Shown one piece after another: positions 46,555 through 64,000 of a stretch of DNA of 64,000 nt (the stretch's first letter is position 1; each line of letters starts with the position of its first letter). Both the position numbers and the translations under genes were made by a program. This DNA is from an uncultured delta proteobacterium (GTDB lineage Bacteria > Myxococcota_A > Polyangia > Haliangiales > Haliangiaceae): positions 384,001 to 448,000 of the forward strand of contig CAWKDB010000010.1 in NCBI GenBank assembly GCA_963848295.1, in the 5' to 3' direction. The notes under the pieces were generated by a model that did not search any database, was not told the origin of the DNA, and saw only the letters and a list, made by a program, of their open reading frames with translations.

Positions 46555-46958
46555 GCTCCAGACGCCTGCGCACTTCGCCGTCGGGCCCTCTCTTCGCGCC
46601 CATCGGCGCCCCGATCGTGAACTGCGTGCCACATCGGTGCGCAAATCACGGCCAGCGGTGTCGGGTCGCTTCCTGCTCTCGACACGCTCCGATCTCGGAT
46701 TGTCGTCGAGGACCGTATGCCCCACGACTCGCGCCTGCGCGCTGCGCCCAACGAGTTGCGGCTGCAACATCATCAAGCTTTGACTGAAATCGAAACCGAA
46801 TATCATGTCTGGATCGCGTGAGCCGTGCCGGCTCGATCAGAGTCAACCGAGTCAACCACCCACCGCGATCACCGCTTGGAGCAAGCCTCAACTGGCGCGA
46901 GCAATGCAAATCGAACTGCGCGGGTGACGAACGCACGGTTCGCCCCCCAAGGAGCCGC

Positions 46959-47462: not shown

Positions 47463-47723
47463 TCGGCTCGCTCCGTGGGCTGCATGAATCAGTCGGTCCG
47501 ATTCTCCGTTGCGGAGCGACTCAGTATTTTGACCGTCACGCCGATCCCGACGTTCGTGCCGGTGCGCAATCTAGCGGAGACCGCGGCGGGTTTCATGTGC
47601 AGATCGGGGAAGACCTCGACGTACGGAACCTGCACAAGACGTGCGGCGAACCGGCTCAGACGAGTTATCCGCTGTAAGCAGCCGAGGACAGACAGTGACA
47701 AGGCGCGGTGGTTTGCTACCGCG

Positions 47724-47894
47724 ATGAGAAGAGCGGACGGGCTCTACGATATCTCGCGGCGCAAGTTCTGTGCGGTCGCGGGGCTGACGCTGGTCGTCGG
47801 CTGTATCGACAGTGATGGCAGCGTCGTCCAGACCGGCCAGCTCGGCGACAACCTATCGCAGACCGTCGCCGCGTCGGTGAGGTTGAATTCCTGA
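47724..47894 (+). pseudogene. Short Tat-signal ORF, probable remnant
   Basis: ISRRKFCAVAGLTLVVGC followed by only ~30 residues. Confidence 0.45.
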
Positions 47895-47923
47895 TGCCGC
47901 TCCTCGCCGGAGCTGGAGGTCGT

Positions 47924-48424
47924 ATGAAGTCCGTCACAGCTGCTGTCGCGATGCTCGCCGTGATGGTGCTCGGCGAGGTCGCGCGTGCCGAGGTCAAGCA
48001 AGGCGATCACTTCACCGAGCTCGACGCGGTCACCGCCAAGGGCAAGAAGTTCCGGCTCAAAGCCATGGCCGGCAAATGGGTCTTGTACACGTTCGGCGCG
48101 AGTTGGTGCCAGCCGTGCCACAAGGAGCTGCCCGCTTACGACCGGATCTCGCCCAAGCTCGCGGGCAAGGTGCTGTTCGTGGCCGTGAACATCGACGAGA
48201 AGGTCAAGGACGGCCAAGACTTCCTCGACTCGCTGAAGCTTCACCACATGTTCCCGGTGTTCATGTCAGACGGCTCGAGCGCCGCGCTCAAGGCGTATGA
48301 CCCCGACCACATGCCGTCGACGTTCGTGATCGATCCGACCGGTATCGTCCGCTATGTGCACTACGGCTTCGAACCGGGCGACGAGGACAAGGTCGCCACT
48401 GCACTGCTCGGTCTGACGAAGTAG
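47924..48424 (+). CDS. TlpA-family thiol-disulfide oxidoreductase
   Basis: Signal peptide, ASWCQPC, MPSTFVID. Confidence 0.92.
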   Translation: MKSVTAAVAMLAVMVLGEVARAEVKQGDHFTELDAVTAKGKKFRLKAMAGKWVLYTFGASWCQPCHKELPAYDRISPKLAGKVLFVAVNIDEKVKDGQDFLDSLKLHHMFPVFMSDGSSAALKAYDPDHMPSTFVIDPTGIVRYVHYGFEPGDEDKVATALLGLTK

Positions 48425-48434
48425 GAGTCGCCTC

Positions 48435-49778
48435 ATGCGCCGCGTTACCCCCTGGCTAGTCCTCGTGTTCGTCTTGCTCGTCCCCGCGCTTGCGAGTGCG
48501 GATGACGGCAGCTTCGAGAAATACCAACAACGCGGATACTTGTGGATGTTCCTCGGCTCGTTCGGGGCCGGGTTTCTAACGTCGCTGACCCCGTGTGTCT
48601 ACCCGATGATCCCGATCACCCTTGCGATCTTCGGTGCGCGGGGAAAAGACGTGTCCAAGAAGCGCGCTCTCGGCCTCGCTACTGCCTACGTCAGCGGGAT
48701 GGCGGTCACGTATGCCGCACTCGGCGTGGCCTTCGCGCTCCTAGGCAAGGGCGCGAACTTCGGCACCCAACTCTCGAGCCCTTACGTCGTCATTCCGCTC
48801 GTACTGCTCTTCGTTGCCCTCGCGCTCTCGATGTTCGGCTTGTACGAGCTCAACCTCCCGTCGTCGATCCAGCAGAGGCTCAATCGGATCGGCGGCAAGG
48901 GTCCCGGTGGTGCATTCGCGATGGGGCTGGTCGGCGGGTTGATCGCCGCGCCATGCACTGGACCGTTTCTCGCCGGACTTCTCTTGTTTGTGTCGACGTC
49001 GGGCAGCGTTGTCACCGGCGGTTCACTGCTCTTCACCTACGCGATCGGCATGGGGGTCCTGTTCTGGGGGCTCGCCGCGTTCTCGCTCTCGCTACCAAAA
49101 AGCGGCGCATGGATGGAGCATGTCAAGTCGATCGCCGGGCTCGGCTTGCTGTTTGCCGCGCTCTACTACCTGCGACCCCTCTTCCAGCCGATGCGGACGT
49201 TCGCCTCCCCCGAGCCATGGTTCCTCGTCGCGTCGCTCGCGACCATCACGGTCGGGCTCGCGCTCGGCGCAGTTCACAAGTCCTTTCACGGGTCGGGCCG
49301 AGAGAGATGGCGTAAGGCGAGTGGGGCCGCGCTCGTGATCGTCGGAGCGTTCGCCGCGTACACATGGACGCTGACTCCGAAGCAGCACTTAGGATGGATC
49401 GTCGACGACGAAGAAGCCGCATTCGCGAAAGCTGCGGCCGAGGACAAGGGCGTGATGGTCGACTTCGGCGCTAGCTGGTGCAGACCATGCGAAGACATGG
49501 AGCTCGTTTTCGACGACGACGATGTCCGTGCGGCGATCACGGAGAGCTTCGTACCACTCAGGTTCGACGTCTCCGACGGCAACGACACCGATCTCGAGCG
49601 CAAGTCCCGTTACGGTGCGGACACGCTCCCAGCCGTCATTTTCATGTCGAAAGAACATGTCCTGCTCGCGCGCGTCTCGGAGGAGATGAAGGCGGACCAG
49701 ATGTTAGACGTTGTTCGCCCGGCAGCGGCCCGGACCAAGGGCCGGCCCCCGGTCATGCCTGCATCGAAGCAGCAATGA
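48435..49778 (+). CDS. DsbD/CcdA-family membrane protein with a C-terminal thioredoxin domain
   Basis: LTPCVYPMIP, AAPCTGP, PKSGAWM, DFGASWCRPC. Confidence 0.92.
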   Translation: MRRVTPWLVLVFVLLVPALASADDGSFEKYQQRGYLWMFLGSFGAGFLTSLTPCVYPMIPITLAIFGARGKDVSKKRALGLATAYVSGMAVTYAALGVAFALLGKGANFGTQLSSPYVVIPLVLLFVALALSMFGLYELNLPSSIQQRLNRIGGKGPGGAFAMGLVGGLIAAPCTGPFLAGLLLFVSTSGSVVTGGSLLFTYAIGMGVLFWGLAAFSLSLPKSGAWMEHVKSIAGLGLLFAALYYLRPLFQPMRTFASPEPWFLVASLATITVGLALGAVHKSFHGSGRERWRKASGAALVIVGAFAAYTWTLTPKQHLGWIVDDEEAAFAKAAAEDKGVMVDFGASWCRPCEDMELVFDDDDVRAAITESFVPLRFDVSDGNDTDLERKSRYGADTLPAVIFMSKEHVLLARVSEEMKADQMLDVVRPAAARTKGRPPVMPASKQQ

Positions 49779-49813: not shown

Positions 49814-51955
49814 CTAGAGCCGGGTCAACGGAGCAGTCAGCCCGAGCGCGATCGCGATGTGAACGAGCATCGTGACGAGCAACACGACGGAGAACGGGAT
49901 GTGGACCTTCTTCCATGACCGCAACAGCGCCTTGCCGCGCGGCGCGAGGTCGTTGCGCCGCTCGAGGAACACCACGCGATCGATCCGCCTGGCGATCTGA
50001 CGCGCGATCGCGCGTGGGGCAACCGAGCGCAGACGCCGGCGATAACTGCCGCGTTTCCACCATCGGCGGATCTCGTCGGCCATCACCCACGCTAGGAGCC
50101 GCACCAAGCCGAAGTTCCACGTGCGCTCGCTGTGCTGGGTCTCGACGTCGAGGATCTCGTACGCGAGGTTGCCGGCGGCCGGATGGTCTTTCGCTAGCTC
50201 GGTGATCGCACGGCGACCCTGAAGAATCGCGAAGTCGTTCTTGTTCGAGATCGAGGGCACGAACGTGTAGAGGTACCGACCGATGAGGCCGGACCCGACG
50301 ACGGCTACCATGCTCCAGAACGGAATCGACACCCACGTGGTCAATCGCATCGCGGAGTGCAACACGATGAACATCGGTCCGACGATGCCGGTCATGATGT
50401 GGACGTCGAGCCAGAACTGATTCGTCGCGGTTCGCTTGAACCACCCGAACCGCCGCTGCAGGAGATACGCCATCGATAGCACCATCAGGGCCGTACCGAC
50501 GTAGCCGCAGGTCAAGGCGAGCTTCGAGCCGGCGAGAAAGCTGATGTTGAGCCGCGCGATCTCCGGCTCGATGTTCTCGTAGTGCGTCATCAGGTAATAG
50601 CTGGCCGACCAGGTCGGGTGCCACCAGCGCAACGCGATCTCGACGGTGACGACGAGAAGCGATCCGAGTCCGAGTAACCACAAGAGCAAGCTGAGCTTGC
50701 GGACACGAACGCGCGCATCACCGGAATCGTGAACGCCGAGGCCTTCGACGAACGGCGCCTCGGGCAACACGACGAGCTTGCGGCCACGCTTCGTCGGGGC
50801 GCCCGGTTCGGGCCGCTCGCGAAACAGCGTCGCCGGCGACAGCTCGATCAGGGACCCGGTCGGACATGCTGATACGCATGCTTGGTCGCCATAACCGGCG
50901 CAGTGATCGCACTTGTTCGCGATCCGTCGCGCTGGCGCCTTTCGGCCCTTGCCCGGGCCGAACGCGAGCGAGTTCTTCTTCTCGAGCCGCGCCTTGAACT
51001 GCGGGTTGAAGCTCGGCATCTCGGGTTCGGCGACGTTGACCATGTCGATCGCGCCGTACGGGCAAGACAGCGCGCACAGGCTGCAACCGATACACTTGTC
51101 CTCGATGATCTGGATCTCGCCGGTCTTCGCGTCGCGTTTGATCGCGTCGTGCTCGCACGGCGACAGGCAACGCGCGTCGGTGCAAGTGCGACACGTAAAT
51201 ACGAAATCGAGCAGCCCGAGCTCGTAACCACCTAGCGTGAGCCGGCGCGCGCCGTGACGCTCTTCGCACGCGTCTTCGCACTGCTTGCAGTCGATGCACA
51301 GGTCGAGCTGGCGGACCCGCACGATCGGACCCGCGACCGACATGCCGTTACGCGTGTAGAAATCGAGGATCTCGTGCTTGATACCGGTGATCGAGCGCAG
51401 CCGTGCATTCGTCAGCGCGACCGCTGCCGCGATCGACCGATCTGTGCCAGGAGCATGCTGCGCGAGCCAGGCAACCGCCTCGCCTCCGATCATCATCGCG
51501 ATGGCGCCGGTGATCGAGAAAGCGTGAACGCGGTCGTCGCTGGTCGCGCTCGCGATCGCTTGATAGTTGAACAGCTCGCCGGCGTGGAACAGCGCGAGGT
51601 TCTGCTTCGCCGCGCGCGCGAGCGGCCCCGGGGGCAGCAACGTACCTTCCTTCTCGCCGATCGCGGCGTCGCGTTGCGGGCGACCGCGCTCGGCGAGCGT
51701 CGCCGGATCGAACACGCCGATCGAGATCTGGCCACTGACGACAAAACACAACGCGCTGGTCAGCGCCGCGGGTGGCTCGAGGACCGTGTCGCGCGCTACC
51801 TCCAGCCGGCAGACCAAGCCGGCGGTGACGAGTTGGCCGAGCACGCGGTCCGGCACTTCCGAGAGTAGGCCGATCGCGCGCAGCGCCGCATGCGTTGCAT
51901 CCAACGGCGCGGCCGTGTCGCGCTCGCGCGCGGCGGGTTCGACCGTGACCGCCAT
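49814..51955 (-). CDS. cNMP-binding-like / 4x[4Fe-4S] / di-haem-b transmembrane fusion protein
   Basis: N-terminal cNMP-like fold (FVVSGQI, GELF); four Cys clusters of DmsB/NrfC type; TM domain with two H-x13-H pairs. Confidence 0.8.
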   Translation of the reverse strand: MAVTVEPAARERDTAAPLDATHAALRAIGLLSEVPDRVLGQLVTAGLVCRLEVARDTVLEPPAALTSALCFVVSGQISIGVFDPATLAERGRPQRDAAIGEKEGTLLPPGPLARAAKQNLALFHAGELFNYQAIASATSDDRVHAFSITGAIAMMIGGEAVAWLAQHAPGTDRSIAAAVALTNARLRSITGIKHEILDFYTRNGMSVAGPIVRVRQLDLCIDCKQCEDACEERHGARRLTLGGYELGLLDFVFTCRTCTDARCLSPCEHDAIKRDAKTGEIQIIEDKCIGCSLCALSCPYGAIDMVNVAEPEMPSFNPQFKARLEKKNSLAFGPGKGRKAPARRIANKCDHCAGYGDQACVSACPTGSLIELSPATLFRERPEPGAPTKRGRKLVVLPEAPFVEGLGVHDSGDARVRVRKLSLLLWLLGLGSLLVVTVEIALRWWHPTWSASYYLMTHYENIEPEIARLNISFLAGSKLALTCGYVGTALMVLSMAYLLQRRFGWFKRTATNQFWLDVHIMTGIVGPMFIVLHSAMRLTTWVSIPFWSMVAVVGSGLIGRYLYTFVPSISNKNDFAILQGRRAITELAKDHPAAGNLAYEILDVETQHSERTWNFGLVRLLAWVMADEIRRWWKRGSYRRRLRSVAPRAIARQIARRIDRVVFLERRNDLAPRGKALLRSWKKVHIPFSVVLLVTMLVHIAIALGLTAPLTRL

Positions 51956-51957
51956 GG

Positions 51958-53904
51958 CTAACCCGGCGAGCTTTCGTCGAGCGCGGTGACCGCAGTTCGC
52001 GTGTCGCCGGTATCGAACGGGTTCGGGCGCTTCGACTCTCCGACCGCGAGACGATCGCCGAACGCTTCGATCTCGCCGGTATCGAACGCGAACTGCTGCG
52101 CGATCGGCCGCTTCGGTGGTGGCGGTGGGACGCGCCGCGGCTTCGCCGAGGTCGGCCGCACCGGGCCCGCACCAACGAACGTGCTCTCCGGGGCGAACCG
52201 ATTGCCGCGCGTGACGCTCGTCGTCGCGGAGTCCCCGAACGGATTACCGGTGATCGCGGGAACTGCGCCGGTGGCGCGCCCCAAGCTCGCCGACGACGGC
52301 ACCGCACGGCGGGCGAGCCGGTTCACCGGAATCAATGGATCGGTCTTGGTCTTCGGCTTCGTCGCCGGCTTCGCGCTCGAGACACGCTGGAGGTCGGAGA
52401 TCTTGAACACACCCGAGAGATCGCTGACCGCATCACGCAGCTCGTCGCGAATCTGACCGACCGCGGCCCGGACCTTGCGCGGTGACGGTCGCGCGCTCGT
52501 CTGCTGGGTGCCGCGCACGAGTGCGATCGATTCGTCGGCCGTGCGCGGACACTCGCTCGCGTCCGGAACCAAGCGACGGACGACCTCGTCGGACGCGCCG
52601 AGCGTGTAGAGGTGCGGTCTCTCGACGAACCGCACGCCGATCGCTTCCAGCCATGCGACCGGAGTATCCGCGCCGATCAGCACGAAGGCATGCTGGTTCG
52701 CGATCGCCGAGGTCGAGCCGTCCTTGAGCTTGATCTCGACACCGTCGCCGGTGAACTGCTGCACGTTCGACTCGAGAAGCACGTCGAGCTTTCCGGTGCT
52801 CGTCATCTCGGCAAGTCGCTTCTGATTGCCTTGTTTGCACCGCTTGAACCCGTCGCCGCGATACGACAGCGTGACCCGCGCCCCGACATCAGACAGCGAC
52901 AGCGCCGCTTCGACCGCCGAGTCGCCGCCGCCGACGACCAACACGTCGCGATCCGCGAACTCGGCCGGATCGTCGAGCAGCGACTGCACCTTCTCGAGGT
53001 TTGCTCCAGGTACGGCGAGCAGTCGTGGCTTGCCGCGCAACCCGGTCGCTAGCACGACGCGGTGTGCGCGATACGTCGCGACCGTAGTCTTGATCGTGAA
53101 CATCCCGTCATCGCCACGCACGACGCCCTCGACCGCCTCGCCGAGCTTCATCGGCAGCCGAACGCCCTCGACGACCTGCTGCCACGCGGCGACGAGCTCC
53201 TCTTTCGAACCATCGAACACCGGCAGATACGACGCATTCACCGCGGTCGACGGCTCGGCCATGAAGTGTTTGCCCTTGGGATAGCGCGACACCGTCGAAG
53301 AGATCACGTGCTCTTTCTCGAGCACGACACAGCTCAGCCCGCGCTTGACGCAGGTCAAGCCGGCCGACAATCCACCCGGGCCCGAGCCGACGATCACGAC
53401 GTCGAGCACGTCTCCTCTCGCGCGCTGCGGGTCGAGCTGACCCGCGATATGCTCGATCACTGCGCGTCCGAGATTGGCCGCGTTCTTGACGAGCGGCTTG
53501 CCTGCGACCTCACCGATCAGGTATTGGCCCGGCACGCCGGTCTGGAAGTGCTCGTCGAGCTCGGGCACGGTCAGCATGCGCGGTGTGCTGCCCGCGCGGT
53601 ACATGACGAGTGCCATCGTCGGACACGAGTTCGCGCACTGCTCGCACTGGACGCAGTCACTGAACCGGCTGACCTTGACCACGTGGTTGACGAGGTCGAG
53701 CACTTCGGTCGGACAGACGTCGATGCACGCCTCGCAGCCGATGCACCGGTCGTCGTTGATCGAGTGGAGCAGCGGGATCGCGGCCTCGACGTTCTCGAAG
53801 CTCGCGAGCCTGCGATAGCGCGCGCGCCGGTCGTCCATGATCGCGCCGAGCCCGAGCAGCAGCACGGCGACCGAAGCGATGGCGATGGGGATGATGGGAT
53901 CCAT
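51958..53904 (-). CDS. Membrane-anchored 2x[4Fe-4S] FAD/NAD(P)H oxidoreductase (thioredoxin-reductase-like)
   Basis: N-terminal TM; CIGCEACIDVCP, CVQCEQCANSCP; GSGPGG, ATG, GGGDSA; low-complexity tail. Confidence 0.88.
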   Translation of the reverse strand: MDPIIPIAIASVAVLLLGLGAIMDDRRARYRRLASFENVEAAIPLLHSINDDRCIGCEACIDVCPTEVLDLVNHVVKVSRFSDCVQCEQCANSCPTMALVMYRAGSTPRMLTVPELDEHFQTGVPGQYLIGEVAGKPLVKNAANLGRAVIEHIAGQLDPQRARGDVLDVVIVGSGPGGLSAGLTCVKRGLSCVVLEKEHVISSTVSRYPKGKHFMAEPSTAVNASYLPVFDGSKEELVAAWQQVVEGVRLPMKLGEAVEGVVRGDDGMFTIKTTVATYRAHRVVLATGLRGKPRLLAVPGANLEKVQSLLDDPAEFADRDVLVVGGGDSAVEAALSLSDVGARVTLSYRGDGFKRCKQGNQKRLAEMTSTGKLDVLLESNVQQFTGDGVEIKLKDGSTSAIANQHAFVLIGADTPVAWLEAIGVRFVERPHLYTLGASDEVVRRLVPDASECPRTADESIALVRGTQQTSARPSPRKVRAAVGQIRDELRDAVSDLSGVFKISDLQRVSSAKPATKPKTKTDPLIPVNRLARRAVPSSASLGRATGAVPAITGNPFGDSATTSVTRGNRFAPESTFVGAGPVRPTSAKPRRVPPPPPKRPIAQQFAFDTGEIEAFGDRLAVGESKRPNPFDTGDTRTAVTALDESSPG

Positions 53905-53911
53905 GGGGCGC

Positions 53912-54427
53912 TCAGAGATGGACGCGGAAGTCAGACGTGTGGCACATGGACGTGTTGCAGTTCGCGCCGGTCTCGCTGTCGACCTGGTCGAGCATCGGCA
54001 GCACGGTCGGGCACAACGACACGAACGCATACGCGGGATACGTGACGAACCCGTCGGTCGTGTAGAAGTTGCCGCTCGCTCGGCTGATCGCGGTCGCGGC
54101 GTTACCCATCGTGTCTTCGACGTAGATCGTCGCGCCGGTCGCCACCGTCCGCCCGGTCACGTCGGTGTAGATCGTGCCCGCAAACACGAAGGGCGTCCCT
54201 GGCCCGCTCTGACTGTGGCACGCGAGACAGTCGTCCCCGGCCGAGCCGTTGTTTCCAGCCGGTCCGCTGCACGTACCGTCGCTGCCATCGGCCGGCATCG
54301 CTGGTTGATCGCACGCCGGAATCGGAACGCGTGACGCCGCATCGAGATCGGACTGGCCGCTCTTCTCGGTCAGGTCGCCGGAGCAGCCGCAGAAACCGGA
54401 CACGCAGATGATGACCAACCTGTTCAC
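53912..54427 (-). CDS. Dihaem cytochrome c lipoprotein
   Basis: Cys lipobox-like N-terminus; CLACH and CNTSMCH. Confidence 0.75.
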   Translation of the reverse strand: MNRLVIICVSGFCGCSGDLTEKSGQSDLDAASRVPIPACDQPAMPADGSDGTCSGPAGNNGSAGDDCLACHSQSGPGTPFVFAGTIYTDVTGRTVATGATIYVEDTMGNAATAISRASGNFYTTDGFVTYPAYAFVSLCPTVLPMLDQVDSETGANCNTSMCHTSDFRVHL

Positions 54428-54576
54428 TGCGCCTAGCGATTCGTGCAACCGCCGTTCCGGTCGCCCGCACCGCGAACCCATCGTCTGATCGGCCTCGGAC
54501 TGTACGTCCTCCACACAGTCGTGCGGGGGCCGCACGATCGCTGACCGCGAATGTCGAGCAATTCCCGTTCTTGGTG

Positions 54577-54592
54577 TGGTGCGCATTCTGCT
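54577..54592 (+). promoter_or_regulatory. Possible sigma-54 promoter
   Basis: TGG-N10-GC spacing: TGGTGCGCATTCTGCT upstream of the GTG at 54606. Confidence 0.45.
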
Positions 54593-54605
54593 AGGGAGCC
54601 AGACG

Positions 54606-55904
54606 GTGAAACTCCCGTGGGGGCTAGTCACGCTTGTTGGCGCGCTGTCGGTAGCCGGTATCGCGGTCGCCGACACGCGCCACACGACCGAGCCGGTCGT
54701 GCTGCGCAAGAAGGCGGGGGAGAGAGAGACCGCGGTCGCGAACCTCCCGGCGAATGCTGCGGTGACGGTGTTGTCGGAGCAAGGACGGTGGGTGCGAGTT
54801 CGCTATGGCTCGGTCGAGGGCTACATCACGCGCACGACGATCGACGAGCCGGTACCCCAGCTGACACCGACCGCGGGGTGGAGTGCGGCGCGCCACCCCG
54901 GTGACGCCGGCGAGGTCACCGATCTGTTCGTGCAGACCACCGTAGCGAGTCGGTTGTTCGCGTCGCCTTCGACGGGGTCCGCCGCCATCGCCGAGCTGCC
55001 GAGCGGGACCAAGCTCAGCATCGTCGACGCGGCGAGCACGCCGGGTTGGATCCACGCTCGCGATGACGGTGGCCACGACGGTTGGGTCGCCCGCGCCGAG
55101 GTCAACGACACGGGCAGCGGTGTTGTCGTCGACGCGAGCAGCATCCACACCTCGAACGTCGGCGCGCCGTTCGTGCGCGCACTCACGCGAATGCACGGCG
55201 AGCTCGGCGTCGGTTATCGATCGCTCGGCATGAACATGACCGCGAACCAGGTCAATGGCTTGACCAACTATCTCGCCACATCCGACGCGATGGCCGCCGT
55301 CGGCGCGGTCGAGGCGTCGTGGACGATCGCCGGGCGGATCTACGTCGGGGCCGATGCGCGGGTGGAGGTCAGTCAGTCGTCGCCCGGGCTGGACTATCCG
55401 GGCCCGACCAACATGCCCGGCAAGATCCCGTTTGACACGTTCGAGGCCGACGCCGGCGGCGAGCTCGGGATCCACGCGAACGAGCTCGTCAACGTCGCGG
55501 TCCACCTCGGCGGCCACTACGATGCGTTCCTGCCGGACGACGTCAACAACGTCGGGATGCTCCCGCGCGAGAGCTTGGTCGGTGCGACGGTCGGTCTGCG
55601 CGCCGCACTCGTGCCTCCACACAGTCGCTTCGCCGCAGCCGCGCGCTTCGATGTGCTCGCGATCGGCTCGCGCGCCCAAACGACTGGCCTGCAAGACGGA
55701 ACCGACAGCCGCGCACATGCCGTGTGGGGGGGGGCGACGCTGAGCTACCTGATCGGCCGCCACATCGCGATGTTCGCGGGCTTCGATCTCGGCTGGGCGT
55801 CGACCCACTGGAACGGCCCATCCGCGCGCGAGCCCGGTGTCACGAACGCGCATCGGGTCGACACGTCGCAGCTCGTTCAACTCGGAGTCAGCGCCGCGCT
55901 GTAG
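54606..55904 (+). CDS. Protein with two SH3b domains and a C-terminal beta-barrel
   Basis: GRWVRVRYGSVEGYI and GWIHARDDGGHDGWVA; amphipathic strands in the C-terminal half. Confidence 0.75.
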   Translation: MKLPWGLVTLVGALSVAGIAVADTRHTTEPVVLRKKAGERETAVANLPANAAVTVLSEQGRWVRVRYGSVEGYITRTTIDEPVPQLTPTAGWSAARHPGDAGEVTDLFVQTTVASRLFASPSTGSAAIAELPSGTKLSIVDAASTPGWIHARDDGGHDGWVARAEVNDTGSGVVVDASSIHTSNVGAPFVRALTRMHGELGVGYRSLGMNMTANQVNGLTNYLATSDAMAAVGAVEASWTIAGRIYVGADARVEVSQSSPGLDYPGPTNMPGKIPFDTFEADAGGELGIHANELVNVAVHLGGHYDAFLPDDVNNVGMLPRESLVGATVGLRAALVPPHSRFAAAARFDVLAIGSRAQTTGLQDGTDSRAHAVWGGATLSYLIGRHIAMFAGFDLGWASTHWNGPSAREPGVTNAHRVDTSQLVQLGVSAAL

Positions 55905-58217
55905 ATGATGCGGGCAGTCCTCCTCACGTTCGTCGCCCTGTTCGGGCTCGTCGCGGCTTCCGGCCGCGCCTACGCCGATATCTTGAAGTCGTCTCCCGGC
56001 GAGCTCGCGAAGAGCCACGCGGATCTCGATAGCCAGGACAAGTGCACGGCGTGCCACGAGCCCGACAACTCGATCTCCGCGAACAAGTGCCTCGGCTGTC
56101 ACGACCACCAGAACATGAAGAAGAAGATCGACGCGGGCGAAGGGTTCCACGCATCGCCGAAGGTGAAAGGTCGCGACTGCAAGCTGTGCCACCAAGAGCA
56201 TCGCGGTCGCGGCTTCGACTTGATGGGGTGGGCCGGTATCGGCGGCCAGAACGCGTTCGACCACAAGCTCACGACGTTCCCGCTCGACGGCAAGCACGCC
56301 GCGACGAGCTGCACGAGATGCCACACGACGACGAACCGTCAAGGCCTGCGCACGTTCCTCGGCGCCGACAAGCTGTGCGGCTCGTGCCATGCGAAGGACC
56401 AACCCCACGGCCAGGTCCGCGCGCTCGTCATGCAATGCGGCCGGTGCCACACCGAGGCCGAATGGAAACCGCAGAAGGCGACGCTCGACTTCGACCACAA
56501 CGACAAGAAGCAAGCCGCGATGGCGCTCGAGGGCACGCACGCCGATGTCGCTTGCTCGAAGTGCCACACGAAAGCGGCGTTCAAGCTGTCGCGCCCGGGT
56601 GACACGTGCGAGCAGTGTCACAAGAGTCCCCACGACGGACAGCTGTTCTCGACGAAGGCATGCTCGCTCTGCCATTCGCCGGTGCTCAAGTCGCTCCGTG
56701 AGGTCCAGTTCGATCACAAGAAGAACACCGGCTATCCACTCGTCGCGAAGCACGCGGCGCTGGCGTGCGAGACCTGCCACACCAAGGCGCTCGCGCTGAG
56801 AAAGCCGAACGGCGCGTGCGAGAGCTGTCATCAGAAAGACAACAAGCACGGGACGCGGTTCTCGAAGTTCCCCGCGTGCGCGACCTGCCATACGCAGCGC
56901 TCGTGGACCGCGAGCTATCAGTTCAACCACCGGACGAACACCGCGTTCCCGCTAACCGCAAAGCACGCGACCGTGAGCTGCCGCGCTTGTCACCGCGGGT
57001 CGCGGCCCGACGACTTCGAGCGGTTCGACATCAAGAACGGCTGCATGAGCTGCCACCAGCACAAGAAGGCGCACGGTGGTCAGTACAAGGAGAACCAGTG
57101 CCTGACCTGTCACAAGGAGGCAGGCAGCCCCGAGATCCGCCGCGAGCAAGCGATCGAGCAGTACCACGGGCCGAGCTCGAAGTTCCCGCTCGTCAACGCG
57201 CACGCGACGGTGAAGTGCGAGATGTGCCACATCAACGACGTCTATCAAAACACGCCGCGAGAGTGCGGCGTCACGTGTCACGAGGACTCGCTGCACAAGG
57301 GCACGCTCGGCCAGGAATGCTCGCGCTGTCACGAGCCCGGGCAATGGCCGGCCGTGCGCTTCGATCACAAGGACGACACGAAATGGCCGTTGAAGGGCAA
57401 GCACGCGGAGGTCAAGAACTGCGAGTCGTGCCACCCGGGGCGGGTCTATCACGGCACGCCGACGACCTGCGCCGCCTCCGGCTGCCACAAGAACGACGAC
57501 GTACATCAAGGCCAGCTCGGCACGGCGTGCGAGCGGTGCCACGACGAATCCGGCGCCGTGCTGTTCAAGCACAATCGCGATTCCAAGTTCAAGATCGACG
57601 GCGGCCACGTCTCGCTCGTGTGCGGGGCGTGCCACAAGACCGTCGCGTTCAAGCCGGTGCGGTCGGACTGCTTCGGCTGCCATCCCGAGCCGGCGATCCA
57701 CAAAGGTCGCTACGGTACCGAGTGCGAGCGGTGCCACTCGACCACGAGCTTCGGCGACATCAAGGCGCAGCACGACGTGGGCGACTTCTCGCTCGACGGT
57801 GCGCACGATCAGGTCCCGTGCGCGAGTTGCCACCCGCACGGCGAGAAGCTGCGCGGCTCCGGCAATTTGTGCGTGAATTGCCATCGCCGGGACGACATCC
57901 ACCAGGGCGCGCTGTCGCCGCGCTGTGGTGAGTGCCATACCCAGCGCGCGTTCGCGCCGGCGCGGTTCGATCACCTCAGCGTCGGTTGTTCGCTGATGGG
58001 GTTGCACTCGACGTTGCCGTGCGCGGACTGTCATCGCAATGGCAACTTCGGCGCGGTGTCGCCGATGTGCATCAGCTGCCATCGCAACGACGCGTTGCGA
58101 GTCGCGCAGCCCGATCATCGATCGAACGGTTACTTCGATTGTGGGTCGTGCCACAACCCGACGGCGTGGCTGCCCGCGCGAGCCAAGCCTCTCGGGCGTG
58201 AGACCGTATGTCGATAG
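55905..58217 (+). CDS. 30-haem periplasmic cytochrome c (c3/c7-like tri-haem repeats)
   Basis: Signal peptide; hand count of 28 CxxCH, 1 Cx3CH and 1 Cx4CH; repeated FDH...FPL.G.H. Confidence 0.93.
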   Translation: MMRAVLLTFVALFGLVAASGRAYADILKSSPGELAKSHADLDSQDKCTACHEPDNSISANKCLGCHDHQNMKKKIDAGEGFHASPKVKGRDCKLCHQEHRGRGFDLMGWAGIGGQNAFDHKLTTFPLDGKHAATSCTRCHTTTNRQGLRTFLGADKLCGSCHAKDQPHGQVRALVMQCGRCHTEAEWKPQKATLDFDHNDKKQAAMALEGTHADVACSKCHTKAAFKLSRPGDTCEQCHKSPHDGQLFSTKACSLCHSPVLKSLREVQFDHKKNTGYPLVAKHAALACETCHTKALALRKPNGACESCHQKDNKHGTRFSKFPACATCHTQRSWTASYQFNHRTNTAFPLTAKHATVSCRACHRGSRPDDFERFDIKNGCMSCHQHKKAHGGQYKENQCLTCHKEAGSPEIRREQAIEQYHGPSSKFPLVNAHATVKCEMCHINDVYQNTPRECGVTCHEDSLHKGTLGQECSRCHEPGQWPAVRFDHKDDTKWPLKGKHAEVKNCESCHPGRVYHGTPTTCAASGCHKNDDVHQGQLGTACERCHDESGAVLFKHNRDSKFKIDGGHVSLVCGACHKTVAFKPVRSDCFGCHPEPAIHKGRYGTECERCHSTTSFGDIKAQHDVGDFSLDGAHDQVPCASCHPHGEKLRGSGNLCVNCHRRDDIHQGALSPRCGECHTQRAFAPARFDHLSVGCSLMGLHSTLPCADCHRNGNFGAVSPMCISCHRNDALRVAQPDHRSNGYFDCGSCHNPTAWLPARAKPLGRETVCR

Positions 58218-59818
58218 CGCGGGTCACAACGCTCGCGCTTGTCGCGCTTCACGGCGTGGCGCTCGCCGACGGCGACGCGACGACGACCGGCGTGACCACC
58301 ACGGCTCCGGACACCGACCCACTCGACGTCCGGCTGACGCTGTCGTCCTTCCTTTATCAACAGAGTGGCAAGGACGCCGCGCCGATCGTCGACTCCGGCT
58401 CGACGCTGCAGAATGCGAGTCCGGTGCGCCGCGTGTTCGGCGACATGCGCGGCGAGATCTCGGACTCGGGGTTCGCGCTCGACGGCCGCGTGCGCGAGAC
58501 GACGACCGACGACTATCAATCGGGCGCGGTCGGCGGAAGCGAGTACGAGATCCGGACGCTCGACTACCGGCTCGGCTCGCGCGCGACAAACCTGACGATC
58601 GGCCGGCAATTCATCTCGTCGGTCGGCGAGACCAAGGTCGACGGTCTGTCGTTCAACCACGAGCTCGCCTCGGCGCTGTCCGCGACCGTGTTCGTGGGCG
58701 CGTTTCCGCAACTCGGCTCGCGCTCACTCGACACCGACTACATCCACTTCAAGGATCCGATCACGGGCGGCAACGAGGCGTTGATCGTTCCAGTCGTCGG
58801 CGGCGTCGGCATCACGTATCAGACGCTGAACTATCACGGCGACCTCGGTGCGGCCGGGCTGTACGCGCCCGAGTCCCTGCCCGACGCCTCGGCCGACGAG
58901 AAGTCGCGCGTATTCGCGGCCTCGAGCGGTTACTGGCGCCCGGCTTCGATCCTCGACATCTATCACTTCGCACTGCTCGACGTCGTCGGCGCCGACGGCG
59001 TCAACTTGACCGACGGCAGCGTCGGCATCGACCTACGCCCGATCTCGAACGTCGTGTTATCGGCGAGCGCGATCCACATCAGCACGGACCTCCTACAGAT
59101 CGACGCGCGCAACTACCTCACCGACCCGGACCCGAGCGCGATCGGTGTCGTTCAGAACAACGTCGCGCTGCTCAAGATCGCGAACGATATGGTACGGGGC
59201 TCGGCCAGCGTCTCGTTCGCGGAGCGGCGGTTCGAGATCTCGGGCTCCGGCGGTCTCCACGTGCGGCCGAGCGTGACGGTGCCGCTCCCGCTGTCCGACG
59301 GCACCACCGGTGAGCTCGTCATGCCGGAGGAGCGTTCGATCGACGCGACCGTCACGATCCTCGATCGCCGTTCGATCGCCGGCCTGCGAATCGCGGTGTC
59401 CGGCAGCATCATCGATCCGCTCGGCACGAAGACGCCGAATCGCTCGCGCGGCACGGTCGGTCGGTTGTCCGCGAGCCGGACGTTCGCGCTGCAACGCGGC
59501 CAGATCGAGGCCGACGTCATGGCCGAGTCGTTCGACGACATCGGCAGCGCGCAGCAATGCTCGACGTATACGAACCCACTCGCATGCTACGGCACGGCGC
59601 ATACGACCGCAGGCCAGGCCGGCGCGCTCGGCTCATGGCGCGTCGGTCGCGAGTGGCTCGTGCTCGCCGACTTCCACGTCGGGTATCAAAAGATCGGCTC
59701 GACGTTCGTCACGATGGACCCGACCGATCCGTCGTCACCGCTCGTCGACATGCCGATTCACTGGCCGGGAGTCATCTCGGTCACCGCGTTCGCACGTGTG
59801 CAATGGCGGTTCCGCTAG
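58208..59818 (+). CDS. Putative outer-membrane porin
   Basis: Signal peptide, LTIGRQF, KVDGL, many amphipathic strands, terminal VQWRFR; lies between two multihaem genes. Confidence 0.75.
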   Translation: MSIARVTTLALVALHGVALADGDATTTGVTTTAPDTDPLDVRLTLSSFLYQQSGKDAAPIVDSGSTLQNASPVRRVFGDMRGEISDSGFALDGRVRETTTDDYQSGAVGGSEYEIRTLDYRLGSRATNLTIGRQFISSVGETKVDGLSFNHELASALSATVFVGAFPQLGSRSLDTDYIHFKDPITGGNEALIVPVVGGVGITYQTLNYHGDLGAAGLYAPESLPDASADEKSRVFAASSGYWRPASILDIYHFALLDVVGADGVNLTDGSVGIDLRPISNVVLSASAIHISTDLLQIDARNYLTDPDPSAIGVVQNNVALLKIANDMVRGSASVSFAERRFEISGSGGLHVRPSVTVPLPLSDGTTGELVMPEERSIDATVTILDRRSIAGLRIAVSGSIIDPLGTKTPNRSRGTVGRLSASRTFALQRGQIEADVMAESFDDIGSAQQCSTYTNPLACYGTAHTTAGQAGALGSWRVGREWLVLADFHVGYQKIGSTFVTMDPTDPSSPLVDMPIHWPGVISVTAFARVQWRFR

Positions 59819-59884
59819 TGCGGCAAGCGCACGGTGCGCGCACAGGTCGTACACGCCAGGGATGCGCTGGCGCGGGCTTTCGCC

Positions 59885-59900
59885 TGGTCCTTCGTTTGCT
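59885..59900 (+). promoter_or_regulatory. Possible sigma-54 promoter
   Basis: TGGTCCTTCGTTTGCT (GG-N10-GC) upstream of the GTG at 59914. Confidence 0.45.
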
Positions 59901-59913
59901 CCACGCCAAGGCT

Positions 59914-62900
59914 GTGCGCGCGTCTACAGCATTCGGCGTCGCGACGCTCGTTGTGCTCGCGGCGTGCAACCTGGGCAACCACGAGCCGTCCGAAGCCGGC
60001 GTAGGTCAGCTGCCTCCATCCGACGCCTGCTCCGGCGTATGCCACGGCTCCGGGCCGAGCATCGCTCCGCCGCGCGATGCTGAAGGCAACAGCCTGACCT
60101 CGGCGAAAGGCGTCGGCGCGCATCAAGCCCACTTGCTGGCCTCGTCGCCCTGGCACGCGACGTTCACGTGCGTGACGTGTCACAAGGTGCCCGCCCAGGT
60201 CGGCGACCCCGGCCACATCTTCAACTACGGCGCCGATGGCACGCCGATCCCGATCACCGGTCCGGCGGTGCCCACGTTCACCGGGCTCGCGGTCGGCGCG
60301 CTGTACGACGAAGACAGCGGGACCTGCACGAACACGTACTGTCACGGCGACACCCTGCACGGCACGAACGCGACGACGAACATGGTGATGGGCGACGGCG
60401 GCGGAACGCTGACCAAGCCGGTGTGGACCCAAGTCGATGGCACCGCAAACCAGTGCGGGTCGTGTCATGGCCTGCCGCCGCCGGCGCCGCATCCGCAGAA
60501 TCAGGACTGCGGTCAGTGCCACCAGTCGATGAACCCCGGCGACTTCGCGGCCGGAAAGATCTCCTACCCCGCGCTCCACATCGACGGTGTCGTCGAGGTC
60601 GCGTCGTCCGAGGCGTGCGATTCGTGTCACGGCGGGAGCGGCCAATACGCTCCGCCCAAGGATGCCCACGGCAATACGCTGACGACCGCGCCCGGCGTCG
60701 GCGCACACGCGCAGCACATGACGACGTCGTCGACGTGGCATGCACCGATCGACTGCAACGAGTGTCATCAGGTGCCGGGCAGCACGACCGACTTGACCCA
60801 CCTCGACGGCATCGACGAGGTCTATCTCGATCCGACCGTCCCGGTGCCCGGTTCGACCACCGGGACCACCGGCGGCAAGCTGCAGATTCCCGGCGCGGTG
60901 TGGAACGCGAACAACTACACGTGCTCGAACACGTACTGCCACGGCGGCGGGACGACGACTCCGCTGACCGGCGGCGCGACCGTGACGCCGTTGTGGACCA
61001 AGGTCGACGGCACCCAGAGTCAATGCCAGTCCTGCCACGGCTTCCCGCCACCGACGCCCCATCCGCAGGACTCCGACTGCGGCAAGTGCCACCCGACGAT
61101 GACGGCGGGCGACAACACGACGATCACGTATCCGGCCAAGCACATCGACGGCAACGTCGACGTCATCAACGATCAACCCTGCAACAACTGCCACGGTGAC
61201 AAGAGCGCGACGCCGGTCGTTGGCGACAACATCGTCAACGCTCCGCCGACCGATACCCACGGCAACACCGCGACGAACCTCATCGGCGTCGGTGCCCACG
61301 CGTCTCACATGCAGGCGTCGAGCTGGCGCGCTGCGATCGCGTGCACGCAATGTCACACCGTGCCGACGTCACTCGAGTCGATCGGCCACATCGATCACCC
61401 GCTGCCCGCGTACGTCCGGTTCGGATCCCTCGCCGGCTCGACCGCGGTCTGGAACGAATCGACGTGCAGCAACACGTACTGCCACGGTGCGACGCTGAGC
61501 TACATGGGCGTCGGCGCCGGCGGCACCGCGACGACGCCGGTGTGGACGAAGGTCGATGGCTCGCAGAGCACGTGCGGATCCTGTCACGGCTTGCCACCTC
61601 CATCGCCGCATCCGCAAGACGCCGACTGCGGCAAGTGCCACAACACGATGACGCCCGGGGGCGGCTTGGTGATCACCGATCCGACGCGTCACATCGACGG
61701 CAACCTCGACGTCGACGACGACAAGCCATGCAATTTCTGCCACGGCAACGCCAGCGCCACGCCGAGCTCGAACAGCGACCCGGTCAACGCACCACCGCTC
61801 GATACGCTCGGCAACAGCTCGACCGCCGATCGCGGCGTCGGCGCGCACCAATCGCACCTCTCGCCGTCGAATCTATTCTTCAAGGCGATCGTATGCAGCG
61901 ACTGTCACACCGTGCCCGCGACGGTGAACTCGGTCGGTCACATCGATCACGCGCTACCCGCGTACATGAAGTTCAGCGCGCGCGCCGGCTCGAGCCCGAC
62001 GTGGAACGGCGCGATCTGCAGCAACGTCTACTGTCACGGCTCGAGCCTTACCGACGGTAGCACCGGCGCCGGCGGCTCGGCGACGTCGCCGATCTGGGCG
62101 AAGGTCGACGGCTCGCAAGCACAGTGCTCGTCGTGTCACGGCAACCCACCGCCCGCGCCGCATGCGCAGGATCCCGACTGCGGCAAGTGCCACAACGACG
62201 TCACGCTCGGCTCGCCGACCGTGTTCAGCGATCCGACGCGTCACATCGACGGCAACCTCGACGTCACCTCGGATCAGCCGTGCAACACCTGCCACGGCGA
62301 TAGCACCGCCACGCCCACCGGCGGCGGTGACCCGGTCAATGCGCCGCCGACCGATACCACCGGCGGCTCCGCGCCGACGCTGCGCGGCGTCGGCGCGCAC
62401 CAAGCGCACCTCACCGGTGGATCGACGTGGCACGCGGTCGTGAACTGCGTCGAGTGCCACGCGGTGCCGACCTCGGTCGAGCCGCATGCGAGCCAGCCGC
62501 TGCCGGCCTCGATGGCGTTCAGCGGCGTCGCCGCGACCGGGACCGGGACGACCTGGGACGGCGCGAACTGCAGCTCGTATTGCCACGGCTCGACGCTCGC
62601 CGCCGGTGGCGCCGATACGTCGCCGGACTGGACCCTGGTCGATGGCTCGCAAGAGCAGTGCACGTCGTGCCACGGCAATCCGCCGCCCGCGCCGCACCCG
62701 CAAGATGCGGCCGACTGCGGCTCGTGCCACATGGACGTCATGCTGGGCTCGCCGACCGTGTTCACCGCTCCATCGATGCACATCGACGGCATCGTCGAGG
62801 TCAGCCAGGTTCATCCGGCCGGCTACGACCAGGTCGCGATGCACGGCTACGACTACGACAAGCAGGGCCAGACCAACTGCGCGACATCGGGCTGTCACGG

Positions 62901-63648
62901 CACGACGCTGCTCGGTGGCTCGACCGGCGGCCCGTCGTGCTCGACGAACAACTATAACGGCGGCGGCTGCCACTCGACGACGATCGCGACCGGCTACACG
63001 TGGCAGACCCAGTGCACGTTCTGCCACGGCGATATCACGACGCCGTCCGGCAACGGCGCGCCACCGCAAGGCGTCGAAGGTGCCACCGCTCCGACCGATC
63101 CGACCGTCGGCGCTCACCAGATCCATCTCGGCGCGACGCTGACCCACGCCACGTGGGACTGCACGATGTGCCACGTCAAGCCGACGTCGGCGACGAGCCC
63201 TGGGCACATCAGCGGCAACGGCACCGACACCGCGAAGATGACGTTCTCGACGCTCAACCCATCCGCGACGTACAACACGACGGCGTATACGTGCGGCACC
63301 ACGTATTGCCATGGCAACGGCCAGACGACCGCCACGTCGCCGGCGTGGACCTCGACCACGGCTCTGACCTGTAACTCGTGTCACAAGACGCCAGCCCCGG
63401 GCGGCTCGGCGTCGGGCATGTCGGGCGAGCACAGCACGCACATCGGGGACCAACGGATGAAGTGCTCGCAGTGCCACTCGACCGTGGTCGACACGACGCC
63501 GAACATCATCAACGTGCTGCTTCACATCAACGGTACGAAGGACGTCAACTTCTCCGGGGGCGGCACGTGGACGCCGTCTGGTACGAGCGGTTCGTGCTCC
63601 GGCCTCGGCGGCAACTGCCACGGAACCAAGAGCTGGAATGGAGGGTGA
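59914..63648 (+). CDS. Giant multihaem cytochrome c lipoprotein (CxxxxCH...CxxCH repeat family), up to 33 haems
   Basis: Lipobox LAAC; hand count of 23 CxxCH, 2 Cx3CH, 6 Cx4CH, 1 Cx6CH, 1 Cx9CH; five tandem penta-haem units. Confidence 0.92.
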   Translation: MRASTAFGVATLVVLAACNLGNHEPSEAGVGQLPPSDACSGVCHGSGPSIAPPRDAEGNSLTSAKGVGAHQAHLLASSPWHATFTCVTCHKVPAQVGDPGHIFNYGADGTPIPITGPAVPTFTGLAVGALYDEDSGTCTNTYCHGDTLHGTNATTNMVMGDGGGTLTKPVWTQVDGTANQCGSCHGLPPPAPHPQNQDCGQCHQSMNPGDFAAGKISYPALHIDGVVEVASSEACDSCHGGSGQYAPPKDAHGNTLTTAPGVGAHAQHMTTSSTWHAPIDCNECHQVPGSTTDLTHLDGIDEVYLDPTVPVPGSTTGTTGGKLQIPGAVWNANNYTCSNTYCHGGGTTTPLTGGATVTPLWTKVDGTQSQCQSCHGFPPPTPHPQDSDCGKCHPTMTAGDNTTITYPAKHIDGNVDVINDQPCNNCHGDKSATPVVGDNIVNAPPTDTHGNTATNLIGVGAHASHMQASSWRAAIACTQCHTVPTSLESIGHIDHPLPAYVRFGSLAGSTAVWNESTCSNTYCHGATLSYMGVGAGGTATTPVWTKVDGSQSTCGSCHGLPPPSPHPQDADCGKCHNTMTPGGGLVITDPTRHIDGNLDVDDDKPCNFCHGNASATPSSNSDPVNAPPLDTLGNSSTADRGVGAHQSHLSPSNLFFKAIVCSDCHTVPATVNSVGHIDHALPAYMKFSARAGSSPTWNGAICSNVYCHGSSLTDGSTGAGGSATSPIWAKVDGSQAQCSSCHGNPPPAPHAQDPDCGKCHNDVTLGSPTVFSDPTRHIDGNLDVTSDQPCNTCHGDSTATPTGGGDPVNAPPTDTTGGSAPTLRGVGAHQAHLTGGSTWHAVVNCVECHAVPTSVEPHASQPLPASMAFSGVAATGTGTTWDGANCSSYCHGSTLAAGGADTSPDWTLVDGSQEQCTSCHGNPPPAPHPQDAADCGSCHMDVMLGSPTVFTAPSMHIDGIVEVSQVHPAGYDQVAMHGYDYDKQGQTNCATSGCHGTTLLGGSTGGPSCSTNNYNGGGCHSTTIATGYTWQTQCTFCHGDITTPSGNGAPPQGVEGATAPTDPTVGAHQIHLGATLTHATWDCTMCHVKPTSATSPGHISGNGTDTAKMTFSTLNPSATYNTTAYTCGTTYCHGNGQTTATSPAWTSTTALTCNSCHKTPAPGGSASGMSGEHSTHIGDQRMKCSQCHSTVVDTTPNIINVLLHINGTKDVNFSGGGTWTPSGTSGSCSGLGGNCHGTKSWNGG

Positions 63649-63651
63649 CAC

Positions 63652-64000
63652 ATGAACAGATCGCTGCTGCTGATCGCACTCATCGCTGGGTGTCAATCCG
63701 GCTCATCGACGAGCGGCTCTGGGCTGCCGGCGGCGAGCAGCTGGAATGCCGATCCGACGGCCGCGACCGCCGCGCCGATCGGCGCCGCGCCGCACGGGAC
63801 GATCCATACCGACGTCAACAAGCTCGGCCTGCCGCCGCCGGACCCGCACCGCACGATGGATCCGACCCACCACGTGCGCGGCGTGATCCACGCACCGCCG
63901 GATGCGAAGGTCGCGGCCGGCACCGCGGTCTTCGTCGTGGCAAAACGGACCGATGCGTCGGGCGCGCCGTCCGGACCGCCGGTCGCAGTCCGGCGCTTGA
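63652..64000 (+). CDS. Lipoprotein with a CcmH/CycH-like Ig domain (partial)
   Basis: Lipobox IAGC; VRGVI...AVFVVAKR...GPPVAVRRL; open to the window end. Confidence 0.65.
   Translation, partial: MNRSLLLIALIAGCQSGSSTSGSGLPAASSWNADPTAATAAPIGAAPHGTIHTDVNKLGLPPPDPHRTMDPTHHVRGVIHAPPDAKVAAGTAVFVVAKRTDASGAPSGPPVAVRRL

Follow-up and report, generated by a model that had tools for sequence, protein, structure and literature searches.

A predicted myxobacterial electron conduit on the PCC3 plan with a candidate NADPH-coupled feed

Predictions of two families of porin–cytochrome conduits, PCC3 and PCC4, go back to 2017, and the accessible part of a 2025 report still calls PCC3 functionally unverified (10.1101/2025.02.27.639646). 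Their inner-membrane proteins are marked by WX3HX13H motifs on helices 3 and 5 and an SGXXG motif on helix 4, and the pattern of two HX13H motifs is that of the membrane domain of ferric reductases and NADPH oxidases (NOX) (PMC5566968). In PCC3, this protein is stand-alone and about 300 amino acids (aa) long, and the periplasmic cytochromes carry 21–27 haems at 22–39 aa per haem; the haem medians are 21 for periplasmic and 34 for outer cytochromes, with a maximum of 85 in one protein (PMC5566968). The porin of the Leptothrix PCC3 is given as 22-stranded, and the family has also been surveyed in Gallionellaceae (PMC10734462). The gene cluster described here bears on the inner-membrane electron source of PCC3 and PCC4. 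It lies at the right-hand end of a 64,000-nucleotide (nt) stretch (the window) from an uncultured delta proteobacterium of the Haliangiaceae (GCA_963848295.1; contig CAWKDB010000010.1, here C10, positions 384001–448000 of a 7.8-Mb, 85%-complete genome); coordinates without a contig prefix are those of the window.

A further point of reference is the ptd operon, which resembles PCC4 and encodes a porin, a flavin adenine dinucleotide (FAD)/NAD(P) oxidoreductase, a cyclic nucleoside monophosphate (cNMP)-type 4Fe-4S protein and a ferric-reductase-like protein, and whose function is given as unknown in the accessible text of its authors (10.1101/2023.11.21.568154). Judged from its sequence, the window cluster likely works like a porin–cytochrome conduit on the PCC3 plan that is fitted with redox parts of the PCC4/ptd type, and it would hence be a variant of a predicted kind. 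New are its myxobacterial layout, in which a cNMP and 4x[4Fe-4S] unit is fused to the haem b domain, a Geobacter-type CxxxxCH lipoprotein in place of the PCC3 outer cytochrome, a gene for an SH3-barrel protein, and a shorter paralogue that occurs genus-wide. For its function, an export of electrons from cytoplasmic NADPH over both membranes, probably bypassing the quinone pool, is considered to have about an even chance of being correct.

Comparison with PCC3 and other conduits

The cluster spans about 14 kb and comprises two divergent operons, whose genes are lettered A to H from left to right. A sequence-only reading had described eight open reading frames (ORFs) here, and all eight were recovered where it had placed them, tightly packed with gaps of 2, 7, 0, −10, 95 and 3 nt inside the operons. 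Its division into a left operon for a dihaem lipoprotein, an FAD/2x[4Fe-4S] oxidoreductase and a 4x[4Fe-4S]/bis-His membrane protein (C, B and A) and a right one for an SH3 protein, a 30-haem cytochrome, a porin-like protein, a 33-haem lipoprotein and a CycH-like protein (D to H) is borne out by ORFs and motifs alike, as is the shared intergenic region, a 178-nt spacer (54428–54605) that separates the likely start of C from that of D and in which a sigma-70-like promoter site was not found. The anticipated total of about 65 haems agrees with 65 counted haem c motifs (30 in E, 33 in G, two in C), 52 of them canonical CxxCH; in 1000 shuffles, CxxCH arose on average 0.44 times in E (maximum 3) and 0.21 times in G (maximum 2). 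The implied novelty of cytochromes far above decahaem size did not hold up, and 65 haems were rejected as an exceptional feature, since medians of 21 and 34 and a record of 85 make such sizes ordinary within the PCC3/PCC4 family.

Two loci from Rubrivivax and Ideonella served as PCC3 references, assigned by layout and lineage rather than by He's own sequences. The Rubrivivax locus encodes a membrane protein, cytochromes with 24 and 63 haems and a porin and has a divergently oriented B homologue as its neighbour; that of Ideonella encodes a membrane protein, cytochromes with 24 and 34 haems, a porin and ccm genes, followed by a B homologue. The window cluster thus shares with these loci a B homologue beside or near the conduit genes, and its protein A carries exactly the PCC3/PCC4 inner-membrane motifs, two WX3HX13H and one SGXXG. 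E (55905–58217, plus strand, 770 aa), a predicted periplasmic cytochrome c with 28 CxxCH, one Cx3CH and one Cx4CH motif, is a near full-length homologue of the PCC3-type 24-haem proteins, matching that of Rubrivivax at 33% over 633 columns (E-value 5e-88) and the second one with an E-value of 1e-79; its 30 motifs lie slightly above the published range. An adjacent barrel (F) and a second giant cytochrome (G) that is repeat-rich and rich in Gly, Thr, Ala and Ser complete the likeness, with 33 haems in G against the PCC3 median of 34 and with 25.7 (E) and 37.7 (G) aa per haem inside the PCC3 span.

There are also differences from PCC3. A has 713 aa, with cNMP and 4x[4Fe-4S] domains fused before the membrane domain, whereas the PCC3 protein stands alone; the genes B, C and D are extra; F is shorter than the 727–847-aa betaproteobacterial porins; and the host is a member of the Myxococcota, whereas PCC3 hosts are Proteobacteria. 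G (plus strand, 1244 aa), a predicted 33-haem lipoprotein, belongs to the Geobacter CxxxxCH/CxxCH family TIGR01904/PF09698, whereas the 63- and 34-haem outer cytochromes lack PF09698 and match it with E-values of 0.006–0.024 at best. Since both a stand-alone membrane protein and a homologous outer cytochrome are missing, the cluster is not a plain member of PCC3. G is built of about six repeats of some 185 aa and holds 23 CxxCH, two Cx3CH, six Cx4CH, one Cx6CH and one Cx9CH motif, the last two being the least certain haem sites. Its frame is open from 59557; a lipobox, LAAC in G and kept as LAAC/LGAC in the six orthologues shown, points to a likely GTG start at 59914, from which the gene runs to 63648.

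F (58208–59818, plus strand, 536 aa), a predicted outer-membrane β-barrel, has no Pfam or NCBIfam match. Its AlphaFold2 model, built from 78 sequences, is all-β with about 22 long strands by manual count (predicted local distance difference test 75.8, predicted template modelling score 0.70), and its top structural matches are membrane barrels, which supports the earlier suggestion that a porin-like product is encoded here. OpdQ (Z 16.4, root-mean-square deviation (rmsd) 6.9, 268 aligned) and MtrB (6r2q_B; Z 16.2, rmsd 5.9, 357 aligned) lead this list. With MtrB tied with an unrelated porin, F is shown as a generic barrel only, and its identification as an MtrB orthologue was rejected. In profile comparisons, F matches barrels of Gemmatimonadota/FCB-type clusters (probability 95.6%, E-value 1.3e-8), which in turn match the betaproteobacterial PCC3-type porins weakly (17%); directly against two of the latter (727–847 aa), a profile of only two rows, hhalign gave a probability of 0.2%. 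Named F homologues are labelled Kofleriaceae, Myxococcales or Deltaproteobacteria/Proteobacteria, and labels on the closest ones fit the myxobacterial lineage proposed earlier; by these labels, the host probably belongs to the Kofleriaceae (Myxococcota).

The plan of periplasmic cytochrome, barrel and lipoprotein cytochrome is also that of MtrCAB from Shewanella and of the Geobacter conduits (OmaB-OmbB-OmcB, Ext), and G falls into a Geobacter-named motif family. In contrast, homology to decahaem MtrA/MtrB or OmaB/OmbB was not seen, E reaching 39.7 bits against TIGR03508 (cut-off 192.2) and F matching no Pfam or NCBIfam family, and the window cluster contains no gene for CymA/NapC. The comparison with characterised complexes came out mixed: no characterised match was found, but the cluster matches the predicted PCC3/PCC4 family (PMC5566968).

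In an outward direction, electrons would pass from E through the barrel F to G, which may be exposed on the cell surface, and on to an extracellular acceptor such as Fe(III) or Mn oxides or humic matter. Conversely, the conduit could work inward, taking electrons from Fe(II), a cathode or reduced humics and delivering them to NAD(P)+ or ferredoxin. This role was the first to be suggested for PCC3, in iron oxidisers, and PCC3 is found in Fe(II) oxidisers; the available text of one report has it transcribed above the mean in Sideroxydans CL21 (10.1101/2025.02.27.639646), and that of another considers porin–cytochrome wires potentially reversible (PMC10734462). Yet the part of a proteomic study of strain ES-1 that is accessible lists the PCC3 extracellular cytochrome as undetected in all conditions given (PMC11429942). 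From textbook energetics, NADP+ reduction would be uphill and an inward flow would run against the membrane potential, and the cluster holds no energy-coupling subunit, so that an inward conduit appears quite improbable here.

The flavoenzyme, its membrane partner and their linkage

Protein A (49814–51955, minus strand) is a predicted inner-membrane protein of three parts. Residues 18 to 200, approximately, form a predicted cNMP-fold domain (fold match Z 12.2, rmsd 3.5, 135 aligned) whose nucleotide pocket looks degenerate, and a 4x[4Fe-4S] domain with PF13247 follows at 220–364; its 16 iron–sulfur (FeS) cysteines, in four groups, are kept in the 17 full-length homologues shown, and it resembles subunits of the DmsB/HydN/NrfC type. 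The membrane domain, a predicted di-haem b protein, carries WX3HX13H at 515 and 681 (His519/533/685/699) and SGXXG at 555, all kept across 52 aligned homologues. Four of its five predicted helices pass the hydropathy cut-off, and helix 4 (H543–570) comes from the model only. On helices 3 and 5, the His pairs are placed at opposite faces. Fold searches with full-length A listed only the cNMP and FeS domains and no ferric-reductase or cytochrome b folds, with cNMP matches filling the lists, and sequence searches of the PDB gave none for the membrane domain of A, for E or for G, and only chance hits for the A profile.

Protein B (51958–53904, minus strand, 648 aa) is a predicted membrane-anchored 2x[4Fe-4S]-FAD/NAD(P)H oxidoreductase with a hydrophobic helix at its N-terminus, two CxxCxxCxxxC motifs and an FAD domain of the Pyr_redox_3 type. 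This domain has the thioredoxin reductase (TrxR) fold, with Bdr/YpdA (E-value 3e-48) and TrxR-type ferredoxin-NADP reductases as nearest relatives. An assignment as thioredoxin reductase was rejected, the disulfide CxxC being absent in 38 of 38 aligned homologues. Instead, these keep Arg348 (38/38) and Arg354 (37/38; numbering from residue 2), a pattern that we take to be a mark of NADPH binding or preference. The C-terminal tail of about 200 aa (51958–52600) is of low complexity and rich in Pro, Arg and Thr; its length, not its sequence, is kept in orthologues, and it is possibly a phosphorylation or interaction tail. A search of viral contigs gave no B relative among eight pattern matches. 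Between B and the divergent spacer lies C (53912–54427, minus strand, 171 aa), a predicted dihaem lipoprotein without Pfam match that has a lipobox-like Cys15, one CxxCH and one C-terminal Cx4CH motif and is kept beside B or A in related loci.

Basic residues directly follow the N-terminal helix of B; in A, a signal peptide is absent and the cytoplasmic loops are basic. This charge distribution would place the FAD and the six FeS centres on the cytoplasmic side, beside the inner haem. NADPH could hence reduce the FAD and the two [4Fe-4S] clusters of B, which may hand electrons to the four clusters of A, if the two proteins are in contact; from there they would move to the inner haem b (His519/His685) and the outer haem b (His533/His699), and then to the periplasmic E, possibly via C. 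Such a chain would work like NOX or ferric reductases, in which a cytoplasmic-side flavin feeds two membrane b haems. Unlike in those enzymes, B is a separate protein with a TrxR fold and FeS relays, and electrons would be passed to a cytochrome wire instead of O2 or a chelate.

Comparison across genomes supports this coupling to NAD(P)H. Linkage was scanned in GTDB for the best 80 of 177 confirmed loci, 40 of the B family and 40 TrxR-like controls, split at a hidden Markov model E-value of 1e-60 that was set after a gap between 1e-43 and 1e-65 had been seen. The membrane protein accompanies B in 32 of 40 loci, as does a multihaem cytochrome; both are found in 28 loci, either in 36 and neither in four, while none of the 40 controls has a membrane protein or multihaem cytochrome nearby. 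Moreover, a single ORF of Anaeromyxobacteraceae (L107:471–2693) joins the membrane anchor, 2x[4Fe-4S], FAD and the domain with two WX3HX13H motifs and is followed by a 20-haem cytochrome, and in two PCC4/ptd-type loci (L111 and L130), FAD, cNMP and FeS domains form one protein of about 800 aa, and the membrane protein is encoded separately next to it. The N-terminal half of A is 32–34% identical to these two proteins. Judging by domain composition, one set of FAD, cNMP, FeS and haem b membrane modules appears to be split at different points in L107, in L111/L130 and in A. On the plasmid pEMTOL02 of Emticicia oligotrophica (L175, NC_018749.1:78197–90781), ccsA, the membrane protein, B, two cytochromes, a barrel and a GW/SH3-like gene stand in a row. 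Together, the fusions, the linkage (36/40 vs. 0/40) and this plasmid run favour a flow from NADPH via B, A, E and F to G. The Emticicia operon is complete and, lying on a Bacteroidota plasmid of a cultured strain, offers a practical test system.

With PCC4/ptd, the cluster shares the cNMP and 4Fe-4S (PF13247) protein and the FAD/NAD(P) oxidoreductase, which correspond to the N-terminal half of A and to B; there, however, the cytochromes have four, five and ten haems and an outer cytochrome is absent, whereas the window has cytochromes with 2, 30 and 33 haem motifs. According to the accessible description, PtdC is flavohaemoprotein-like and may therefore not belong to the family of B (10.1101/2023.11.21.568154). 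Table 6 of PMC5566968 also gives ‘other redox proteins’ of some 800 aa, next to membrane proteins of 308 aa and cytochromes with nine haems; in size, these fit the FAD-cNMP-FeS proteins of L111 and L130.

A third myxobacterial architecture is seen at L064:4787–10875 (genome G023) and, similarly, at L066, L079, L088 and L096. Its membrane protein combines two cNMP domains with FeS and membrane domains, and a 1250-aa protein has four FHA domains, six or seven CxxCH, FeS and an FAD domain; these genes are divergent from a row encoding a 15-haem protein, a probable barrel and another 15-haem protein.

Distribution and a genus-wide paralogue

Whether the two operons belong together was judged from related loci. 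Relatives of F occur in 42 metagenome loci, of which 34 are of the window type and eight of a paralogous type; six window-type contigs extend to A, and each of these holds A to F, the remaining ones ending earlier. The marker of the window type is D (54606–55904, plus strand, 432 aa), a putative conduit component with a signal peptide and two SH3_3 domains, whose C-terminal part is placed by Atlas near small OpcA/autotransporter-type barrels (a feature-level lead only). D is present in 22 of 91 genomes of the genus, the window genome included, and 16 of the other 21 loci were fetched for a comparison of gene order. All of A to G are found, at least in part, in 14 of the 16, 13 times in the order of the window and once with B between F and G; of the other two, one holds A to F, with B moved and no G in the part retrieved, and one is truncated by the ends of its contig. 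Wherever B has moved away from A (L028, L191, L199), it still stays in the cluster, next to F or G. The sequence-only reading is thus supported in its pairing of the operons but not in counting the CycH-like gene among their parts: H (63652–64209, plus strand, ending 209 nt past the window; 185 aa), an accessory lipoprotein with the Ig-like domain Ig_CycH (PF23892), is present in one of the 16 loci.

A shorter operon with paralogues of A, E and F lies at C11:493660–500532, beside a MoxR/VWA cluster and with neither G nor an adjacent B. Its A and E are frameshifted in the window assembly; two neighbouring genes are frameshifted as well, which suggests assembly indels, and the view of this copy as a proven pseudogene was rejected. 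A stand-alone paralogue of B at C10:3682807–3684630 (50–56% identity) is its probable partner. Of 24 genus genomes, 23 carry this A-E-F type, which has housekeeping genes around it and no adjacent outer cytochrome. Homologues of A, B and F are each present in 23 of 24 other genus genomes, with a different fragmented genome missing each time; outside the genus, they occur in the same seven of 16 genomes and in none of the other nine (one unpublished genome, G010, is included in these tallies). With the A-E-F type genus-wide and the window type in a subset, the window copy represents an accessory version of a core system. In a phylum-wide draw of 201 genomes, for each of which five candidates were scored, five yielded a full-length A, which indicates that the fused form is lineage-restricted. 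In a quick tree of the membrane domains, of which only the starred clades were used, deep branches being weak, window-type and core-type proteins form one Myxococcota clade (SH-aLRT 100) separate from 15 PCC4/ptd-type rows and three proteobacterial PCC3-type rows.

This distribution could also speak for a supply of reductant to the cell envelope or for redox sensing instead of mineral reduction, in which case the core A-E-F proteins and B would deliver electrons to the cell's own periplasmic or surface substrates or report the redox state outside, the cNMP fold of A and the FHA domains of sister clusters would act in regulation and G would be an add-on capacitor. The housekeeping surroundings of the core operon and its lack of an adjacent outer cytochrome fit this, as do the haem-copper oxidases of the host, the two cNMP or four FHA domains of the sister clusters, and the DsbD, TlpA and CycH-like genes that flank the window copy. 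However, DsbD and TlpA stand beside the cluster in none of the 16 genus loci and H in just one, for which reason all three were rejected as core parts, and thiol or sensor chemistry would hardly seem to call for 63 haem motifs on two repeat proteins plus a large dedicated barrel. An envelope function is rated as improbable.

The neighbourhood of the window copy offers further observations. Left of A (44917–49778) are genes for a DUF3570 protein, a response regulator, a TlpA-like thioredoxin and DsbD; a copy of this TlpA with 91% identity is present at C10:4125154, close to a paralogue of the DUF3570 protein. Between 1800 and 43000, GC content is lower (62–65% in many bins vs. 68% for the contig) and some ORFs resemble transposases and an integrase, which suggests that a mobile region borders on the cluster. 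The genome holds 27 ORFs with at least three CxxCH, some being overlapping frames of one gene, and more clusters resembling a cytochrome-barrel-cytochrome arrangement at C10:3649913–3653771 (11/10/4 motifs) and C2:778400–782959 (15/18). Among the sequencing runs listed for the window sequence, one DNA run from a soil metagenome, which may be the source sample, matches (share 0.58) and none is an RNA run.

The electron donor and its possible meaning

Several points weigh against a direct feed by NADPH. The published model takes this membrane protein for a cytochrome b that is active with quinones (PMC5566968). In the window family, Pfam leans weakly to cytochrome b561-type families over the ferric reductase domain: among the 52 members, Ni_hydr_CYTB matches 17 and DUF4405 34, and Ferric_reduct (PF01794) matches four with an E-value of 0.01 at best and with the four haem His present, all below threshold. 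In four of the 40 loci with a B-family gene, both partners are absent, in one case (L126) with full 10-kb flanks, and related genomes are not independent observations. On plasmids of Bradyrhizobium BTAi1 (L176) and Alteromonas macleodii (L177), related membrane proteins are paired with a 2Fe-2S redox protein and a small c3-type cytochrome. The core paralogue has B elsewhere and no adjacent outer cytochrome, so that a surface terminus is not obligatory. Finally, a cluster at C10:4198026–4206203 comprises ORFs with 10, 12, 3, 13 and 27 motifs, a TIGR01904 cytochrome and a NapC/NirT-type gene; it is a probable quinol-fed counterpart and indicates a parallel quinol route in the genome. As a separate observation, the membrane-protein genes of the Alteromonas plasmid lie directly upstream of a NiFe-hydrogenase cluster.

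An alternative is a quinone-coupled conduit, in which the b haems of A exchange electrons with the pool of quinones and quinol is the true donor to E, while B and the FeS domain of A form an entry branch of the NAD(P)H:quinone type or a side branch with a regulatory role. Besides the published model and the weak lean of A towards hydrogenase-type cytochrome b, the likeness of its FeS domain to DmsB/HydN/NrfC-type subunits would fit, which often partner quinone-reactive anchors. Taken alone, though, quinone coupling leaves both the linkage of the flavoenzyme in 36 of 40 loci and its fusion to the membrane domain unexplained, and the His pairs at opposite faces of helices 3 and 5 are what a through-membrane wire needs. 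It is regarded as a rather unlikely account.

Returning to the feed by NADPH, an outward flow of electrons from this donor would, on textbook energetics, be downhill and draw on the membrane potential instead of conserving it, which would make the conduit a redox valve or a metal-mobilising supply of reductant and not a respiratory chain; such a role would suit a host with haem-copper oxidases. With somewhat less than an even chance, this may extend to PCC3-type wires more widely, which would then be fed directly by NADPH via a two-part, NOX-like and quinone-free FAD/FeS/haem b chain, as a non-respiratory form of extracellular electron transfer that spends membrane potential. Here, the core A-E-F proteins with B would be near-universal in the genus, the accessory version would add the 33-haem Geobacter-type surface lipoprotein, and control would possibly be exerted by the cNMP-fold domain.

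The general idea is not unique to the window, since related parts are already in print: a flavoenzyme with cNMP/FeS and ferric-reductase-like proteins is described in the accessible text on the ptd operon (10.1101/2023.11.21.568154). The literature search, in which subscription journals were largely uncovered, brought up no description of the cluster in Kofleriaceae and no proposal of a direct NAD(P)H feed of PCC3, on which the supplements of He 2017 and of the ptd study may bear. In the accessible parts of other reports, Myxococcota head a list for novel multihaem clusters (10.1101/2022.03.26.485925), and a Lentimicrobium cluster with 61 and 20 haems is given (PMC13013709); further related work was likewise seen in extracts (10.64898/2026.05.27.727921, PMC11492766, PMC11475568, PMC4245776).

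With a flavoenzyme, an FeS relay fused to a haem b protein and an outer wire assembled within about 14 kb, the choice between NADPH and quinone becomes directly testable. If the feed by NADPH holds true, extracellular electron transfer need not be a form of respiration, and the abundant myxobacteria that respire O2 would become candidates for the reduction of metals or humic matter.

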